Source of the DNA: Candidatus Latescibacterota bacterium
Lineage (GTDB): Bacteria > Latescibacterota > UBA2968 > UBA8231
DNA: 64,000 bases
Reading direction: 5' to 3'
NCBI GenBank assembly: GCA_965248265.1
Contig: CBDFJF010000001.1
Span: 512,001 to 576,000 of the forward strand
How positions within the stretch are numbered: the stretch's first letter is position 1; the number at the start of each line of letters is the position of its first letter. The notes beneath the pieces are model-generated. The model saw nothing but the letters and a program-made list of their open reading frames with translations. It had not been told where the DNA came from and made no database searches. Made by a program: the position numbers and the translations under genes. Of this stretch, positions 8,324 to 34,201 are shown piece after piece.

Positions 8324-8695
8324 TCACGACTTTTCGATCAGCTCGATCTTGACGTTGTCGGGGCCATCGATGAACACCATGCGATTCGGGGCCGTGTTCT
8401 TCGGACCGAACCATACCGAGACCCCGAGCTCCTCGATCTTCGCCATCGTGGCGTCGAAGTCATCGGTGGCCAGGCAGAAGTGATCCAATCCCTTGTAGCG
8501 GAACAGCTCTATGTCAGAGGCTTCGCGTCCTGTTACGGTGATCTGGACGTCGCCGATATGGACGAACTGCCATGGCGCGCCGTCCTTGACGAAGGGCTCA
8601 TCCGAGGTGGCATCGAACACGGACTCGTAAAATTTGACAGCGGCTGATACGTCGGCCGCCTCATGGTGGATGTGATGCAGGCTGTAGCTGGGCAT
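8324..8695 (-). CDS. VOC/glyoxalase family protein
   Basis: [26 protein letters not shown]. Confidence 0.88.
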
Positions 8696-8848
8696 GTATG
8701 CACTCCTGAAAGTTGGAATCCTGACGATATTAGGAATGTAAGGGATGTGGTGAAATCCGGTGCCGCAGTCAATTCAGGTCGGTACATTCTCCGAGTCCGT
8801 CGATTGATGTATCTTTATAGAAGCCGAGAACTGGAGCCATGGAAGCAG

Positions 8849-9436
8849 ATGGAAAAGAGCCCGGAACAGACTGTCATCGATCCCGAGTGGGTGAACCTCT
8901 TCGCCGAGACCAAGCCCGAGACCGGCAAGGAATCCCTGGTGCGGATTCTCGGGACGATTCCCATTCTCAGTCTGCTCCGTGCCTCCGAACTGAAGCTGCT
9001 GTCGCGCATCGTCCACGTCCGCACCTTCGATCAGGGTGAGACCGTGATTCAGCGGGGTGCCCGGCAATCCGGGTTCTACCTGGTCAGGGCCGGGTCAGTC
9101 AACATCGTCCGTCCCGGGGCTGATGGGCCCCGGATCGTCGATACCCTCCGTCCCCCGGCACTACTGGGGGAGTTTTCCCTGGTCGATGACGCACCACGCA
9201 GCACTTCCATCGTCGCTGCGGAACCCAGTGAGCTCATCGGTTTTTTCAAGCCAGACCTGATGGATGTGCTGGTAACCAAGCCGGGCATGGGGTGCGCGAT
9301 CCTGCTGCGACTGGCCGAGGAAATGAGCCGCAACCTGAACCAAGACTACCAGAAACTGTTCGACCTGGGGTACCCTTTCCTCGAATCCGAGGATGCCTCA
9401 GCGGAACTCGACCCGACCACGAGCGAGGTTCAGTAG
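8849..9436 (+). CDS. Cyclic-nucleotide-binding domain protein (no HTH seen); start could be 8807
   Basis: FYLVRAGSV, LGEFSLVDDAPRSTS phosphate-binding cassette. Confidence 0.85.
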   Translation: MEKSPEQTVIDPEWVNLFAETKPETGKESLVRILGTIPILSLLRASELKLLSRIVHVRTFDQGETVIQRGARQSGFYLVRAGSVNIVRPGADGPRIVDTLRPPALLGEFSLVDDAPRSTSIVAAEPSELIGFFKPDLMDVLVTKPGMGCAILLRLAEEMSRNLNQDYQKLFDLGYPFLESEDASAELDPTTSEVQ

Positions 9437-25516: not shown

Positions 25517-25593
25517 GGGCGATTAGCTCAGTTGGTCAGAGCACCTGCCTTACAAGCAGGGGGTCGCTGGTTCGAGCCCGGCATCGCCCACCA
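25517..25593 (+). tRNA. tRNA-Val(TAC)
   Basis: Acceptor GGGCGAT/ATCGCCC, anticodon arm CCTGC-CT-TAC-AA-GCAGG, GGTTCGA T-loop, encoded CCA. Confidence 0.97.
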
Positions 25594-25770: not shown

Positions 25771-26955
25771 ATGGCATCAATGAAGCTGTATCCTGCGCGC
25801 AACTGCTGGCGGGTGCGGTATACGGTCTATTTGGGTCACCAGAAGCATCATCGATCCCGTTACTGCAAGACGAAGGCGGCGGCAACATCGATGAGGACCC
25901 GGCTTGCGGACTTGGAAGGCGCCACTCGTGATCAGGTTGCAAGCAACGCCCAAATCAAGAAGTGGATCGATGATGGCGTTCTGACTCGTGGTGAGGCCGC
26001 CTCAGCGTTTCCTGGTTGGGCAGACACGGCGGCACGTGACCCCGACAGCTCCGGCACCGACTACAAAGTTATCCTCGATGCATACGAGAATTATGCACTC
26101 GTACACAGCAAGGCCAACGACCCGCACCGCAAGACCCACCTGAACAACATGGCGATGGCTCGCCAAGTCGTGGAACGGCTTCACTCGGACTATCCCGATC
26201 TACGTCAGTTACGGGTCAGGGACTGTGAGGCTTACCGTGCCGATTTACAGGACCACTACTCGTCGTGGAGTGTCCACCACTACCTGACCAAGCTGCGCAT
26301 TCTGTTAGATCAAGCCGTCGATATGGGCATGATCGCCACAAATCCAGCTCGACTGCTCAAAATGGGCAATCCGAAGACGGCCAAGGTCCGACGTATTCTG
26401 AGCAGCGATGAGGCGCGGATGGTGATGGATACGAGCCGGGAGTACCAGCAGTGGGTCTATGGTGGGCTACCCACTGCAGTCAGACTGGGCTTGTACGCTG
26501 GTCTCAGGCCCGAGGAAATGTGCTGGACGCAATGGTCATGGCTGGACATGAAACGTCGTACCCTGACTGTGCAGCAGGCGCAGGACGTGATGGGCCAGGT
26601 GTGGCGACCGAAAGATTACGAAGCACGTGTCCTGGACGTTAGTAAGGAACTACTCGATTGGCTGAAAGCTCAACATCAAGACGGCCGTTTTATCCTCCGT
26701 GGTAAGCATGAGGGCCGCCCGCTGCATCCATCATCCTTGACTCATGGATTCAGGAAGATGGCTGACGCTGCAGGATGGGACACAACAATCTCGTTGTATT
26801 GTGGTCGCCATACCTACTGCACTGAGTTGCTCAGAGCCGGGGTAGACCTGGCCACCGTTCAGCGACGGATGGGACACGAGTCGATCCGCACTACACAGAC
26901 GTATCTTCATGCCCTCGGGGCAGAAACTCCTGTGGCTGACAAGTTGCCGTACTGA
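25771..26955 (+). CDS. Tyrosine recombinase/integrase
   Basis: GLRPEE (R), YCGRHTY (HxxR variant), MGH, TQTY (catalytic Tyr). Confidence 0.93.
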   Translation: MASMKLYPARNCWRVRYTVYLGHQKHHRSRYCKTKAAATSMRTRLADLEGATRDQVASNAQIKKWIDDGVLTRGEAASAFPGWADTAARDPDSSGTDYKVILDAYENYALVHSKANDPHRKTHLNNMAMARQVVERLHSDYPDLRQLRVRDCEAYRADLQDHYSSWSVHHYLTKLRILLDQAVDMGMIATNPARLLKMGNPKTAKVRRILSSDEARMVMDTSREYQQWVYGGLPTAVRLGLYAGLRPEEMCWTQWSWLDMKRRTLTVQQAQDVMGQVWRPKDYEARVLDVSKELLDWLKAQHQDGRFILRGKHEGRPLHPSSLTHGFRKMADAAGWDTTISLYCGRHTYCTELLRAGVDLATVQRRMGHESIRTTQTYLHALGAETPVADKLPY

Positions 26956-27125
26956 GGCGCGGGCTTTTTTTCGGATGAGAGCGCTGATACACGTAAGTGT
27001 TTCCACAAGGAAACACTATCCCGAAGAGCTCTGTGGCTGTCCCTCTTGCTATGCCTCTGGCACAGTTTCTGCTGATGGTTGCTGCAGCAATCTGCTACAG
27101 CAAACGACAGCAAGGAGCGATCAGC

Positions 27126-27314
27126 ATGTTTCCGAATATGACCTTCTGCATAATGTCTACCGACCCGGACTTCGTCTCGGACTTCACACAGCTTCTTCAC
27201 AGTTGTAGCGCGGAAGTCTACATTGCTACTGACTTCGAGGAGTTTAGGCGACTACAAGAGGAGGGTGTCGCAGCCGAGATGCTCGTAGTCGACCCAATCT
27301 TCAAATGCTCCTGA
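27126..27314 (+). CDS. Small hypothetical protein resembling half a receiver domain
   Basis: AAGGAG upstream; alternating beta/alpha pattern ending MLVVD. Confidence 0.4.
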   Translation: MFPNMTFCIMSTDPDFVSDFTQLLHSCSAEVYIATDFEEFRRLQEEGVAAEMLVVDPIFKCS

Positions 27315-27380
27315 GGCTTGCCTCGCGGCGGAAAGCTCCAATACTGGGATAGCACCGCGACACGTGAAGGGGTTGAGGCA

Positions 27381-28392
27381 GTGAACCAAACCACAACAGT
27401 CCGAAAACTGCTGCTAACGGAGGTGCAAGACCTCTTGGACGAAGAGGGATTGCAATGCACCGATACCTCTCAGACAGTGACGGAACTCCTGGCACTGCTA
27501 GCCCACTACTCAGAAGAGCAACACAGGCTCTTCCCGAAAGTCATCATCTGTAATCGTGTTAGTGAGATTCGTGGGGTGCTTGGTGGTGTTGACGAGATTC
27601 CTATCGGTGAAGGCGATATCTCACCTGGAACGATGCGGCAGGCCCTGAAGTCTTGCGCGCCATTGGCCGGTCTTAATTGGCTCCTCTATTTGGAGCGCGG
27701 CTATGGCAAGATGAGATATGGACTTCTCAGATCGGGCCTTCTGCCCACTGCCATCGACCCTAAGGCAAGCCTCCACGAATCTGACGTAGATGCTCTCTTA
27801 ATTAGCCGAGTTGGTGCTGGTACTGTTGAGGCCGTTGGAGCCCACGGTAATCGCTATCGGGTCGTATTCTCAGCAGCGAAGGAGATTGCGGTATCCGCAA
27901 GCGATCATGTCGACACGCTCACAAGTGTGATGGTTAGAGGTTTAGCCGCTGAGGAGGCCGAGACGACCGCGTCGTTCTTTCGGTCCGTTCTGAATAGCGT
28001 CGTCGAAGTAGCTCATGGCACCCTAATCGCGGTATGCTGCCATAGCTACCGATGCCTTGGAAAAGACGCGATCTTCTTCGACCCTGAGATCAATTTCTCA
28101 GGATTCGCGGTCCGGGCTAGCACTCCAACATCTAACGGTGGGGATGTGGCCAGTGCAATGTCCTATGCTGAGCTTCTGCGAGGCATGCTATCGAGTGAGG
28201 CATTTGCGTATTCGATATCAAGGGCAATCTTTTGGGTTATGCTGCTTTGTGAAATCCGAACATGCCGAGCAGGAAGTCGGTGGGGCTAGACGGCGTGCAT
28301 ATAGAGTTCTCAAACGCCTAGTGGACTCAAAATGTTTGGCAGCTGTTTTTTACCAGTCGTCTGATGGTCCCACAGAACTCTACGGGGAGTAG
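27381..28392 (+). pseudogene. Divergent diadenylate-cyclase (DisA_N)-fold protein split by two 1-nt frameshifts (or assembly errors)
   Basis: Three frames join as HGTLIAV...MLSS[D]GICVFDIKGNLLGY..FVKS...GGARRRAY...FYQSSDG; shifts near 28198 and 28241-28248. Confidence 0.65.
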
Positions 28393-28396
28393 GAAA

Positions 28397-29716
28397 ATGA
28401 CAGAAGTCGTCCTGTGGAAACCTAATGTGCCGGTGGCGATCCCAGGGAGCGCCAAGACTCCTGCGGAGATAGCGGATTATGCCAAGCAACTAACGCCTCG
28501 AGATCGCAGCCAGCTCCTAAATGCCTACGAAGCCGAGCACTACGAGATGGCGACTCAGTTCGTCTGGTCGCGTGCCATGGCAGCATTGAAAGCTCAGTTG
28601 GGGACACTCGGGGCAGACTTCATTGGCGAGCTACTCGACAGGCAAGACATCGGCGCTGAGACGTCTCTGGGTACGGCGATCACTGACAACGAAGCGATAC
28701 AGCTGGCACAGGAGTTAGGAATCCTTGGGCCAACCACTGCGCTGAAGCTTCGTCACCAGATGGAACTGCTACTGCATCTTTCGTCGCCCAACAAAGAAGG
28801 CGAAGAGGAAAGAGAGATGTACCCTGAGGACGCGATCCAGTGCCTTCGCGCCTGTGTACAGAGTGTTCTTGGGACTGCACAAGACGAAAGTGCGGTTCGC
28901 TTCAAGCAGTTTCGAAATAGGCTCGAGTCCGAGCCTCTCACGCCAGACAGCGCGGAGGTCGTTACCCTTCTCAGTTCATCGCAGTTCTTTGTCCGGACTA
29001 CCATCAAAGTGCTACTGACCATGGCGAAGGCTTCTCAGGGAGCCAAGCTAGAGCATACCCTTGCGAATCTGAACCTAATCCTGCCAAAGGTCTGGGACAG
29101 GCTGCCTGAACCTGATAGGTGGTCCGTTGGCCGCGGGTACGCCGAAGTCAATGCAGCAGGCCACGTGCAGGCTGCGAAAGGGCTCAAAGCTGCACTGACC
29201 AAGGTCCAAGGATTCGACTTTGTTCCTGAGAGCCTCCGCTCTACTACATACATTGCGGTTGCTCGGGCTCTTGTCGAGACACATTTCGCGATTGACAATT
29301 TCCACAATGAACCAGAGAAGATTCGTGCACTGCACCAACTAGGCAAGTCAATCCCCTCGGCCGCATTGAGCCATTGTCTGACGGCGGTTCTGTGCGTGGG
29401 GCTTGGCAACATGTACGGCATCTCGTATGGAGCTCAATCTTATGTGAACCGTATCCTGGGATCGCTAACTCCGGATCGATGGAAGTACTATCTCGACCAG
29501 TGCCTCCCAGTAGACCAAGTCATTCTTGAGAAGCTGAAATACGATGGTCCCTGGGAGCGGTGGTTTGGTGTAGTCACTAAATACGGTCTGCGCGACTTGG
29601 AATTGGAGCAGACATCGGTTAAGCGGCTTTTTGCGTTGATGACGGGTACCGAAGTCCGGGGAATACCAGCATGGCAGATAGATAAGATGCTGGTTAACGC
29701 AGGCCCACAGGAGTAG
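28397..29716 (+). CDS. Hypothetical helical protein with HEPN-like N-terminal domain
   Basis: AYEAEHYEMATQFVWSRAM...DNEAIQLAQELGIL...LKLRH...H; starts 5 nt after the upstream stop. Confidence 0.6.
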   Translation: MTEVVLWKPNVPVAIPGSAKTPAEIADYAKQLTPRDRSQLLNAYEAEHYEMATQFVWSRAMAALKAQLGTLGADFIGELLDRQDIGAETSLGTAITDNEAIQLAQELGILGPTTALKLRHQMELLLHLSSPNKEGEEEREMYPEDAIQCLRACVQSVLGTAQDESAVRFKQFRNRLESEPLTPDSAEVVTLLSSSQFFVRTTIKVLLTMAKASQGAKLEHTLANLNLILPKVWDRLPEPDRWSVGRGYAEVNAAGHVQAAKGLKAALTKVQGFDFVPESLRSTTYIAVARALVETHFAIDNFHNEPEKIRALHQLGKSIPSAALSHCLTAVLCVGLGNMYGISYGAQSYVNRILGSLTPDRWKYYLDQCLPVDQVILEKLKYDGPWERWFGVVTKYGLRDLELEQTSVKRLFALMTGTEVRGIPAWQIDKMLVNAGPQE

Positions 29717-29721
29717 ACCGC

Positions 29722-30008
29722 GTGGCGATCCCAGACTACCAAACGATAATGAAGCCACTTCTGAGAGCCATCGGAGACGGTGAGGAGTGGAACATCCGTG
29801 AGCTCATTGGTGTTCTTGCCGACGAATTCGGGCTCACTGAAGAAGAAAGACAGACACGGCAGCCAAGCGGGGCAGCGCGTCTATTTGATAATCGGACTCA
29901 CTGGGCACGGAAGTACCTGAAGGAGGCTGGTTGCCTTGAGGCGACTAGAAGGGCACATGTACGCCTGACGGACCGGGGCCGCGAGGTCCTTAGGGACAAC
30001 CCGGATAG
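29722..30008 (+). pseudogene. mrr: Mrr restriction protein N-terminal winged-helix domain, truncated by IS
   Basis: MAIPDYQTIMKPLL...PSG...FDNRTHWARKYLKEAG...LTDRG; nuclease domain absent. Confidence 0.88.
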
Positions 30009-30059
30009 TGAATCGCCCCGGGGTTGCCGGAGGCTCCATTTCTTGAGAGGATTGGAGTC

Positions 30060-31291
<1,232 letters not shown>

Positions 31292-31321
31292 CCGAGTCTC
31301 CGAAAAACCCGGGGCGATTCA

Positions 31322-32603
31322 CAGCTATGAAGAGGCTCGGCTGAGAGTCGAGGAAGCCGAGATCGAGCTTGAAGAAACCAAACTTGCCCTGCTCAAGGAT
31401 GCCACTCGTGTCGCGGTACGCGAAGCGCGCAAGTACCGGCAGGCAAACGGCCACAGCTTCGTGGACCTGTACCTGGAAAACGCATCCGACGTCGATCGTG
31501 CGCTGCTTGTGGATCCACAGTTGCAGCAGGAGGACATAGCGGCCCTCCTGCGAGTCGAAGATGTGTTTGTCTCTCTCACGCACGGTCCCATCGTAGCCGA
31601 ACCCTACGAGGTCAGAATCCCTGTGCTTGAATTGGGGGATCGACAGAAACTGACGTTTCGGCTGCTGAGAGACGAGAACGCGGTCGTCGTCTCCCTCTCT
31701 TACTTGGATGTCGTCGGTGAAACCAGATCGATTATCCTCAAGAAGGGTGGCCAACTGGGCTTGCCCATGATCAACTCCGCTCAATTCTCGCAGGCGGGAG
31801 AACTGAAACGGAAGGTGCGCTACGACCTGTTGCTCGAGCACCTCGCAGAGGATGAGAGCAATTTCGCCCTGGAAGTCGTCGGCCTCGCTCCGGGAATCGA
31901 TCACGCGTTCATGGCTGATGGCGCCCGCGTCAATCGTGTCAGCTTTGACGGTTTCAGCTCCAACGACACGTTGTCACTCGAACTCGCCATCCCTGCCAAC
32001 CTCAACCCCAGATTCATCGGGCAGCCGCGCACCTTTTTTGCGACCATTAGCGCGCCGGGCGAAGTCGGTGTCGTGCGAGACCTCAATGTGAGGTTCGGCG
32101 ATCGGCCTGTTCCCGAAGAAGAGGTGCTTGCGCTCAACGCCAACTACGTGTCGCTGGAGTTGACGCCCAGAGGAGCGGGAGAGCTCGAAGTTCTGGTCGC
32201 GAACCGCTACCAGGAGATTGGTGCGGGAAGTGATTTCCATCTGCAAGTGCAATTCGCCAACCGGGGAACGGCAACCGTGCACAACGTCGAGGCAGTCATC
32301 GACCTGCCGTATCGTTGGGGGAGCACGGTCGAGCCGAACTTGATAGAATCGATCGAGCCCGGCCGCAGAATCTCCATCCTGGTGTCCGCGAGCCCACCAG
32401 ATGAGGTCGCCTCCGCCACCTACGAAATGGGGATCATGGCCCGTGGCCAGGTCGGCAACGAAAACGTCGAATCACGCAAAAAGAGCATCACCATACGCCT
32501 GCAACCGTCCTCCGGAACAGCGACAAAATTGCTGCTGGTTGGTGCGGTACTGACGGTGATCATAGTCGTCGGTGTTGCCGCCGTAAGGATAACTCGGCGA
32601 TGA
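31322..32603 (+). pseudogene. 5'-truncated NEW3/CARDB-like surface protein, paralogue of the next gene
   Basis: Begins mid-coiled-coil at the IS end; DATRVAVREARKYR aligns with DATHIAILEAKKYR of 32600; C-terminal TM plus RR. Confidence 0.8.
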
Positions 32604-34201
32604 TCAAAGTGACATCGACAATCGCAGCACGCGTCGGTCTGCGGTGGCTGTCAATCGTGTTGGCGATCGGCGGCAACCCAGTACCCGCACAAGAGCCCGG
32701 TTTCGATTCCTTTGCTCAACGACCGCAACAGGTGAGAACGCAGGCGCAGCGGCTATACGACCTGCAAGTACACAAAGCCCGCTGGAAGGTAGACCGTCAG
32801 AAACTGGAAATGGAAAGCAGGAAAAGCGATTACGAAGCAACTCGCGACCTGTTCGATCAAAAGATCGAAACACTCGATCGCCTGCATAGAGCGCTGAGCG
32901 AGTACCGGCAGTCGAGCCTTGCGTTCGAGGCGGCACAACTGCAACTGGAGCGCACGCGCCTGTCGTTTCTGACCGATGCCACGCACATCGCCATCTTGGA
33001 AGCGAAGAAGTACCGCACCGCCGACGGACGCAGGCGTGTCGACCTCCTGATCCAGAACGATTCTAATCTCGCTCAGGCGACATCACTCAATCCAGATAGA
33101 GCAGTTGACGACGTCCGCAAACTCCTCGAAGTCCAGGATATCGAAGTATCGCTGCAGGAACAGTCGACAGGCCTCATCATCGCCGAGCCCTACGAGTTGA
33201 CAGTGCCGTCGCTGAAGCACGGGCAAGTGGAGCGCTTGAGTTTTCGATTGATGGAAGACCATGATGACGTCCTCGTAGCGATGGCGGTTCATGGTAGCCG
33301 AAGACAAAACAAGCACATTGTCCTGCGACGAGAAGCCCTGCAGGAGATGCCCTCGCTGTCCTCAGCCCAGTTCTCGCAGGAAGCCGATCTCAATTCGAGG
33401 GTGCGATTCGACCTCGCCATCGAACGACTGGCAGAGGAGGAGCGTGCCTACCATTTGGCCGTGGTCAATCTGCCACAGGAAATCGATGCCTTTTTCTTCG
33501 ACCGGAAGACTGGGGCTGAGCTGCCACAGATCAAGCTCGACGGAAAGACCACCAGACGTGAGGTCGACCTCGAGTTGCGTATCCCAGCGAAATTGGATTC
33601 GCAGTTCGTCGGCGCACCCCTCGTGTTCTACGCTCTGGTCACTGACCAGGAAGGGATCAGGCGAATCGGGCATCTCGGCGATGAGTATGGTGTGAGTGCG
33701 ATCCCGGTTACCCGGATCATCGAGGACGGCGGGAACAACACACAGCGGTTGGAGTTGACGGCGCGAGGACGCGCCGGATTGGAGATCGTCGTCAACGAGC
33801 GCTATCACGAAGTCGGCAGTGGAGATCCAGTCTTAGTGCAGGTTGACCTGTTCAATCCGGGTACACAGCGAGTGATCGAAGTCCGCGTGGATGTCGCCGT
33901 GCCACTGGGCTGGACCTACATGATGGTGCCGGATGAGATCTCGGCACTGATGCCGGGCGAGCGCGAGTCCATGAGTGTCACACTGACCCCAGGTTCGGCA
34001 GAAGGAGTCAGCGAATACGACATTCGCCTGTTCGCCCAGGCCGTCGCGGGCAACGGTGAAAAGATCGAGGCCACCGAGGAGGACATCGCCATTCGCATAG
34101 AACCCCGAGCTGCCGTATGGACCAGTGTTCTCATCATCGCTGCGATGCTGTGCCTGGTCGTGGCCCTGGTTATTGTCACTATCAGGACCAGCCGCCGCTG
34201 A
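32600..34201 (+). CDS. Exported coiled-coil + Ig-like (NEW3/CARDB-like) protein with C-terminal TM anchor
   Basis: Signal peptide, coiled coil, NPGT...VPLGW...PGE Ig motif, TM plus RTSRR. Confidence 0.75.
   Translation: MIKVTSTIAARVGLRWLSIVLAIGGNPVPAQEPGFDSFAQRPQQVRTQAQRLYDLQVHKARWKVDRQKLEMESRKSDYEATRDLFDQKIETLDRLHRALSEYRQSSLAFEAAQLQLERTRLSFLTDATHIAILEAKKYRTADGRRRVDLLIQNDSNLAQATSLNPDRAVDDVRKLLEVQDIEVSLQEQSTGLIIAEPYELTVPSLKHGQVERLSFRLMEDHDDVLVAMAVHGSRRQNKHIVLRREALQEMPSLSSAQFSQEADLNSRVRFDLAIERLAEEERAYHLAVVNLPQEIDAFFFDRKTGAELPQIKLDGKTTRREVDLELRIPAKLDSQFVGAPLVFYALVTDQEGIRRIGHLGDEYGVSAIPVTRIIEDGGNNTQRLELTARGRAGLEIVVNERYHEVGSGDPVLVQVDLFNPGTQRVIEVRVDVAVPLGWTYMMVPDEISALMPGERESMSVTLTPGSAEGVSEYDIRLFAQAVAGNGEKIEATEEDIAIRIEPRAAVWTSVLIIAAMLCLVVALVIVTIRTSRR

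Follow-up and report, generated by a model that had tools for sequence, protein, structure and literature searches.

Diadenylate cyclase (DAC) domains have been shown in phage defence only in preprints and papers of 2026, and these sources describe two architectures, CdaG (DS-2C) in CBASS-DAC and the pair of PanS and PanE (10.64898/2026.08.10.743927; PMC13640721; PMC13069673; PMC13092281). CdaG is a protein of ~550 aa with DACNG, DACNH and DAC domains that works with a CD-NTase (cGAS/DncV-like nucleotidyltransferase) and a patatin effector (10.64898/2026.08.10.743927; PMC13069673; PMC13092281), and PanS is a bare DAC domain of ~150 aa recognised by the DisA_N model that is paired with PanE, a two-transmembrane (2TM) beta-barrel nucleotide receptor (PMC13640721; 10.64898/2026.08.10.743927). 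DACNV-domain proteins of 380-450 aa, which join PF21751 to a divergent DAC domain, are one putative diadenylate cyclase architecture (classification of Galperin 2023, as cited in PMC13640721). Here, we describe a pair of genes, G1 and G2, at positions 27381 to 29716 of a stretch of 64,000 nucleotides (the window) from a Candidatus Latescibacterota bacterium (assembly GCA_965248265.1, contig CBDFJF010000001.1, positions 512,001 to 576,000), for which a first-pass annotation made from the letters alone had proposed a candidate defence system of a DAC-fold enzyme and a partner.

Our analysis supports that interpretation, with the enzyme activity and its product, the binding of the two proteins, the effector role and the defence function itself as its inferred parts. 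The gene pair is real, well-defined and apparently undescribed, with a credible role in defence, and it fits neither of the published DAC forms. We lean, by a modest degree, toward the reading that G1-G2 is a mobile two-gene module in which G1 would sense a cue and make a nucleotide and G2 would be the effector, with the copy in the window having decayed. The pair would then most likely represent a third architecture of DAC-based defence and, if so, differ from the two described forms in its sensor domain, in its altered active-site motif and in an effector that belongs to no known family.

A conserved pair of genes

The copy in the window is organised as follows:

27381..28392, + strand: gene 1 (G1), a pseudogene in three frames with a DACNV-like N-terminal domain and a divergent DAC-fold domain
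27381..27900, + strand: G1 N-terminal domain, ~175 aa, DACNV-like, with invariant EEG, K, W and G
27901..28389, + strand: G1 C-terminal DAC-fold domain (HGTLIAV / S[D]GI / GGARRRAY / SSDG)
28197..28198, + strand: first 1-nt deletion, hitting the codon for the D-G motif's invariant Asp (frame 0 to frame 2)
28241..28246, + strand: stretch with the second 1-nt deletion (frame 2 to frame 1)
28397..29716, + strand: gene 2 (G2), intact, encoding a 439-aa all-helical protein of an unnamed family
28481..28888, + strand: G2 residues 29-164, HEPN-like helical bundle with invariant His127 in ELLLH, no profile confirmation
29039..29434, + strand: G2 residues 215-346, the most conserved core (N224, W233, Y248, G272, P277, H296, N301, E305, G337-N338, G341)

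A word-indexed homologue search with the G1 fragment of the window matched only itself, and the G1 family was reached through the neighbours of G2, which has at least 176 relatives of ~440 aa with 37-50% identity, none of them named. The 80 genome loci fetched via G2 (78 with upstream DNA) come from Pseudomonadota, Bacteroidota, Planctomycetota, Acidobacteriota, Actinomycetota, Cyanobacteriota, Bacillota and others. The upstream open reading frame (ORF) matches the window's own G1 fragment in 76 of the 78, and by profile G1 lies directly upstream of G2 in 77, with G1 found ~5 kb away in the remaining locus (L076), so that the two genes clearly co-occur across genomes. Their spacing is tight, with candidate G2 starts at -38 to +13 nt from the G1 stop (49/49 loci) and overlaps of 4 or 8 nt in 22 of these, and clustering of 739 ORFs from the loci found only G1 and G2 to recur and no third gene. 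Starting from G1, using a peptide pattern from a subset of 12 sequences that covers only the LKKCAPL-bearing part of the family, G2 follows directly in 46 of 51 metagenome loci; the other five end at most 54 nt past G1 or hold a truncated G1, so that G2 was found at all 46 loci whose downstream DNA is long enough to show it. Searching 1.84 billion representatives by profile recovered 777 G1 proteins, counted as representatives at 50% identity (694 at E<=1e-10), a family spread over many phyla whose members are 335-365 aa long in nearly all of the 150 matches listed. Distribution is sporadic, and G1 is absent from all 40 host relatives examined. The pair is found on two plasmids (Agrobacterium and Vibrio, both genes annotated as "hypothetical protein") and on three IMG/VR contigs, whereas neither gene had a tblastn match among 50,697 phage records. 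Loci from cultured, non-pathogenic strains include L013 (Chryseobacterium artocarpi), L039 (Chitinasiproducens palmae) and L050 (Vibrio nereis). Intact copies form a conserved and self-contained module of two genes, which travels within mobile and defence islands among distantly related bacteria. At three Vibrio loci (L050 7326-7940, L056 7326-7940 and L153 3225-3839), a 204-aa ORF of no assigned function starts 0-3 nt after G2 and is a possible third gene restricted to this lineage.

G1 is a soluble protein of ~350 aa, and its C-terminal domain has the DAC fold in an AlphaFold2 model of an intact homologue (pLDDT 93.1, pTM 0.88). The order of DisA_N motifs that the first-pass annotation had recognised in its repaired gene 1 (H-G, D-G, G-G-x-R, S-x-D-G) is invariant or nearly so in 49/49 homologues, far beyond chance: H217, D280, G281, G312, G313, R315, S338 and G341 are present in all 49, G218 in 48 and D340 in 47, and position 317 is Arg in 44 and Lys in five. 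In the register taken from hhalign alignments, all 49 sequences have the first Arg of the canonical RHR motif, the position of its His is occupied by R (20), S (15), T (8), H (3), K (2) or A (1), and its last Arg is R44/K5; similarly, Asp and Gly of the DGA motif are kept in 49/49 each and followed by I (40), V (7) or L (2). Profile-profile comparison of G1 with DAC (P 8.1e-5) aligns HGxLxAV with GALIV, SDGI with the DGA strand and GGARxRAF with GTRHRAA; as a yardstick, the same setting gives P 7.5e-4 for CdaG against CdaA-type DACs and P 2.9e-5 for G1 against CdaG. Judged from these alignments, the DAC-fold domain appears to keep the residues expected of an active nucleotidyltransferase, and the invariance of D-G, R and S-x-D argues for catalysis and not for binding alone. 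Pfam DisA_N had no match to the G1 fragments of the window, and G1 found no significant match in Pfam, PADLOC, NCBIfam or PDB sequence-profile searches.

The N-terminal part of G1 had been taken for a domain of no known kind of ~200 aa. While its ~175 residues are indeed conserved, they do not form a new domain and are instead a DACNV-like domain of the sensor type. A structure search of the ESM Atlas groups them with clusters that carry DACNV, DACNH or DACNK beside DAC (TM 0.58-0.69; 0.58-0.63 against Atlas models of DACNV clusters), and hhalign aligns G1 with 17 DACNV proteins over 287 columns and both domains (Prob 94.6%, P 6.5e-8). The Pfam DACNV model (PF21751) was not among the families matched by any of the 49 G1 proteins at E<=10 and had no match in a genome with intact G1 (G083), and DACNH (PF21750) had none in the six G1-bearing genomes searched. 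Profile comparisons of the N-terminal domain with canonical DAC (P 0.66) and with CdaG (P 0.23) gave no significant match. An internal duplication within G1 is not supported (P 0.48 for N- against C-terminal domain), though the order of secondary structure elements looks alike.

The G2 copy in the window keeps every residue that is invariant in its family, and the G2 model is all-helical (pLDDT 85.8, pTM 0.53). No family in Pfam or NCBIfam covers G2, nothing relevant emerged from a PDB sequence-profile search and Foldseek returned only generic ARM/HEAT rows at TM ~0.2. Hydropathy maxima across 49 sequences have a median of 1.41, and 14/49 reach 1.6 in one conserved core helix. The N-terminal bundle of the model looks HEPN-like, as the first-pass annotation had suggested from its helical pattern, yet that identity is not established: comparison of this domain with the HepT profile was not significant. 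The annotation was right that the canonical Arg is missing, as no Rx4-6H motif is formed between the invariant His127 and the nearest conserved Arg, which lies 8 residues upstream and is not invariant. The core (residues 215-346) is shared with phrog_27609 (E 1e-13 to 3e-22) and with stand-alone proteins of ~470 aa encoded by small plasmids from Clostridium, Acinetobacter, Bacillus and Streptomyces (E 1e-28 to 1e-31 by profile), which suggests that it is an independent module. Since these stand-alone relatives keep all the core residues listed above but neither His127 nor Arg173, the HEPN-like domain may be the part that was added for working with G1. Examples from plasmids of Clostridium perfringens, Acinetobacter schindleri and Streptomyces (L149 3785-5203, L150 3800-5200, L151 3740-5185) adjoin recombinase and toxin-antitoxin genes, with no G1. 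On one IMG/VR contig (L144 4230-6314), a 694-aa ORF has ~257 extra N-terminal residues ahead of its G2 part and may be a replaced or fused partner; G1 was not detected there.

Two single-base deletions in the window copy

Gene 1 of the window extends from a GTG start at 27381 to a TAG stop at 28390-28392 and, read with the profile of 49 intact homologues, is spread over three frames. Frame 0 matches profile positions 4-279 (E 1.3e-64) and ends in ...GMLSS (28196), frame 2 matches positions 281-~296 (GICVFDIKGNLLGY; weak alone, E 0.005) and frame 1 matches positions ~297-346 (E 5e-15), from FVKSEH... to the stop and including ...GGARRRAY...FYQSSDG. These matches confirm the earlier deduction that the gene is split for want of two single bases, which were lost at 28197-28198 and within 28241-28246. 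Contigs from four Logan runs are identical to the window over 27300-29800 (0 differences, 0 gaps), so the breaks did not arise solely in the deposited assembly, though all four runs are from one sample of one study and possibly the assembly's own source. A programmed frameshift was considered and is rejected because the homologues read through in one frame, and no second copy of G1 was found in the host genome. The window copy is a relic and the system dead in this genome, with only G2 still open (ATG at 28397 after a gap of 4 nt, TAG stop at 29714-29716). The same state of a broken G1 beside an intact G2 is seen at four other loci (L014, L044, L063, L194), and only G2 is split at two (L025, L207).

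Relation to known systems and proposed function

The closest relatives of G1 are the DACNV proteins, which share its two-domain layout, the EEG of the N-terminal domain and DG, GG(A/T)R and SQDG in the C-terminal domain. In contrast to G1 with its DG(I/V) and R-x-R, they keep DGA and R-H, and the Pfam DACNV model has no match to G1. If our reading of the pair is true, this large set of "probable sensor" proteins gains a mobile and testable relative. CdaG of CBASS-DAC (DS-2, Liu-DS2) likewise is a DAC-fold protein with N-terminal sensor-type domains that resides in defence islands, its DAC domain aligns with that of G1 over 121 columns (SEDG against SQDG of G1) and some G1-G2 loci adjoin genes of CBASS (cyclic oligonucleotide-based antiphage signalling systems); unlike CdaG, however, G1 has only 350 aa, no match to PF21750 and a constant partner, G2, rather than a CBASS effector. 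PanDA and Panoptoo resemble the pair as two-gene operons of a DAC-fold enzyme and a partner in defence islands, but G1 has an additional conserved N-terminal domain of 175 aa and G2 is a helical protein of 440 aa and not a 2TM-beta protein. Compared with canonical DisA and CdaA (PF02457), G1 is 14-23% identical, has R-x-(R/K) for RHR, DG(I/V) for DGA and S-Q-D for SEE, and lacks any membrane or DNA-binding module. We found no entry for either gene in Pfam, NCBIfam, PADLOC or the searchable literature, with Galperin 2023 and supplementary candidate lists, which may include the pair, outside this coverage.

Prediction of a G1-G2 complex gave a median ipSAE of 0.55 (best control 0.00), with runs agreeing in at least 96% of contacts and partner pLDDT of at least 84. 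The ipSAE mark is reached by 116/157 solved complexes and 2/215 mismatched pairs, with values up to 0.60 comprising only 18/157 of these complexes and both passing mismatches; the result is graded as weak support. Together with the active-site-type residues, the sensor-type domain and the overlapping genes, it points to a complex of enzyme and partner. We propose that G1 and G2 may form such a complex in which a cue sensed by the N-terminal domain of G1 would trigger the DAC domain to make a nucleotide; this product, which need not be cyclic di-AMP (c-di-AMP), or a changed state of G1 would then activate G2 as an effector that stops the propagation of phages or plasmids. A canonical DAC is also encoded in the host genome (CdaA-type, G000 C1:1874891-1875238, 130 bits, in a 275-aa ORF) and in 3/10 other host genomes tested, with none in the other seven, so the pair neither depends on nor excludes c-di-AMP signalling of its host, which is probably present here independently of the island. 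More tentatively, and with less than even confidence, G1-G2 could be a third, undescribed architecture of DAC immunity: a DACNV-like/DAC-fold enzyme whose active site has been remodelled (R-x-R for RHR) and which would act in complex with a new family of helical effectors and either make a nucleotide other than c-di-AMP or transfer a nucleotide onto its partner, with the G2 core, which stand-alone proteins of plasmids and phages (phrog_27609) have in common with it, as a new effector module. At ~2.4 kb, the pair would be a compact two-gene system for asking what a DACNV-type domain senses, what a DAC without the RHR motif makes and what the G2 core does.

The neighbourhood of the pair is in many loci that of defence islands. 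We searched the 140 nearest ORFs of the 80 loci with PADLOC at E<=1e-5 and found matches, many of them full-length, for 31 ORFs in 29 loci, among them SIR2-pAgo (1,500 bits), HmaB (872), DrmD (712), BrxL (704) and a CBASS patatin (389) as well as AbiE (AbiEi), PD-Lambda-3, TIR, CBASS JAB/CapP and the candidate systems PDC-M30/M41. A second shell of 126 ORFs searched at E<=1e-20 has 19 matches and adds six loci for a total of 35/80 (~44%) with a defence gene within two ORFs, one of these loci counting through a generic sigma-54 AAA match. As a crude control from one window and with calls at the level of ORFs, the other 53 ORFs of our window gave six matches, all to generic AAA, SMC or cyclic nucleotide (cNMP)-binding domains; at >=100 bits, the comparison stands at 20/140 nearest ORFs against 2/53 control ORFs. 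CBASS genes adjoin the pair at L013, L056, L080 (E1-E2, JAB and patatin genes) and L047 and on the Agrobacterium plasmid pAtCG920 (L152 4746-9332), where genes for a patatin-like phospholipase and a nucleotidyltransferase are divergently transcribed beside it. This adjacency is reminiscent of other DAC defence genes, which have been reported to lie close to CBASS; at ~5/80 loci plus one plasmid it is too rare for us to claim a specific link.

Several observations weigh against a defence module of sensing enzyme and effector. The DACNV proteins stand alone in syntenic chromosomal contexts with a G2-like neighbour in 0/14 loci, so the fold of G1 does not by itself imply defence. The chemistry of G1 may differ or be lost, given that the His of RHR is kept in only 3/49 proteins and the Ala of DGA replaced by Ile or Val. 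In Pfam, 0/49 G1 proteins lie above the DisA_N (PF02457) gathering score of 27 bits, with four weak matches and a best E of 0.021, and the DAC model never recovers G1 in ten genomes with an intact copy (matches in three of them are other ORFs of 286, 295 and 538 aa). G2 has no recognised nucleotide-receptor domain, nuclease motif or consistent membrane segment, the predicted complex falls in the weak range, 45/80 loci have no PADLOC match within two ORFs and the control for the others is crude. Finally, broken copies in metagenome-assembled genomes (MAGs) may be sequencing errors.

Part of these points would also be expected if the pair were not immune at all but a signalling, maintenance or regulatory module borne by mobile elements, its DAC-like domain perhaps only binding a nucleotide and its defence context a by-product of integrative elements. 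We consider this the best of the alternatives, though unlikely. The stand-alone chromosomal DACNV genes in conserved neighbourhoods, the distant G2-like proteins that stand alone beside recombinases and toxin-antitoxin genes on small plasmids, the loci without a defence match and the loss of the canonical His would all suit it, but not the frequency of strong and specific defence neighbours, the sporadic occurrence across phyla with 0/40 host relatives carrying the module or the invariance of the putative catalytic residues.

Another comparison is with type VII toxin-antitoxin systems, in which MntA, a nucleotidyltransferase of the Pol-beta fold (MNT), silences the HEPN toxin HepT by covalent nucleotidylation. 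By this logic, G2 would be a HEPN-like toxin silenced in the same way by G1 with its DAC fold in place of MNT, and indeed both pairs encode a nucleotidyltransferase beside a protein with a HEPN-like bundle. The transferase folds are different, however, and G2 lacks Rx4-6H and any significant profile match and is three times larger. The distribution of intact genes argues in the same direction: given five loci, the window's included, where G1 is broken and G2 intact, only two that show the reverse, and the existence of stand-alone G2-like proteins, G2 does not seem to be a toxin in need of restraint by G1, and we regard this explanation as improbable. The pattern would suit a G2 that does no harm on its own and favours activation of G2 by G1 over both an antitoxin and a decoy guard, an argument that possible MAG errors weaken. 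Such a guard, with G1 constitutively making a decoy nucleotide that represses G2 until phage sponges remove it, has precedent in two published DAC defence systems (PanDA, PMC13640721; Panoptoo, 10.64898/2026.08.10.743927) and would suit the loci that adjoin CBASS, but it is very improbable because an effector that has lost its synthase should be set free, yet loci with a dead G1 and an intact G2 exist, G1 is not minimal and has a conserved sensor-type domain, G2 is no 2TM-beta protein, CBASS adjacency is rare and the canonical DACs of the host and 3/10 other genomes are unlike the mutual exclusivity reported for PanS (PMC13640721).

The island and its neighbours

The first-pass annotation had placed the pair, with coordinates and spacings that our analysis reproduces, in a tRNA island with an Mrr gene next to it. 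The remaining features of this region are the following:

25517..25593, + strand: tRNA-Val (TAC), left border of the island (ARAGORN)
25771..26955, + strand: tyrosine integrase of the island (Pfam Phage_integrase, E 1.5e-21)
26997..27314, + strand: candidate ORF of 105 aa between integrase and gene 1, no PADLOC or Pfam match
29722..30007, + strand: N-terminal fragment of an Mrr-type (type IV) restriction gene (Pfam Mrr_N, E 9e-30, residues 6-91; PADLOC mREase_IV, profile positions 1-97 of 317 only)
30008..31322, + strand: IS3-family element (inverted repeats 30008-30047 and 31283-31322; orfA 30024-30377, orfB 30377-31291)

A GC content of 0.53-0.55 over 25-30 kb, compared to 0.58-0.62 in the flanks on both sides, further sets the island apart. 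The Mrr ORF starts with GTG at 29722 and is cut by the IS3 element, which has inverted repeats of 40 nt and ORFs with HTH_Tnp_1 and rve domains; only Mrr_N is left and the catalytic Mrr_cat part is missing. Elsewhere in the window, an ORF at 8663-9433 with a cyclic-nucleotide-binding domain (Pfam E 5e-17) has weak PADLOC matches to "TIR effector" and PycTIR, which probably reflect its cNMP-binding part and do not speak for a defence gene. A search of the island for a direct repeat derived from the tRNA found none, and its right end, including any attR, was probably removed by an IS-mediated deletion. The gene that adjoins the IS3 element on this side (31338-32600) has 421 aa left with an NPCBM_assoc domain and is ~110 N-terminal residues short of its 533-aa paralogue at 32600-34201.

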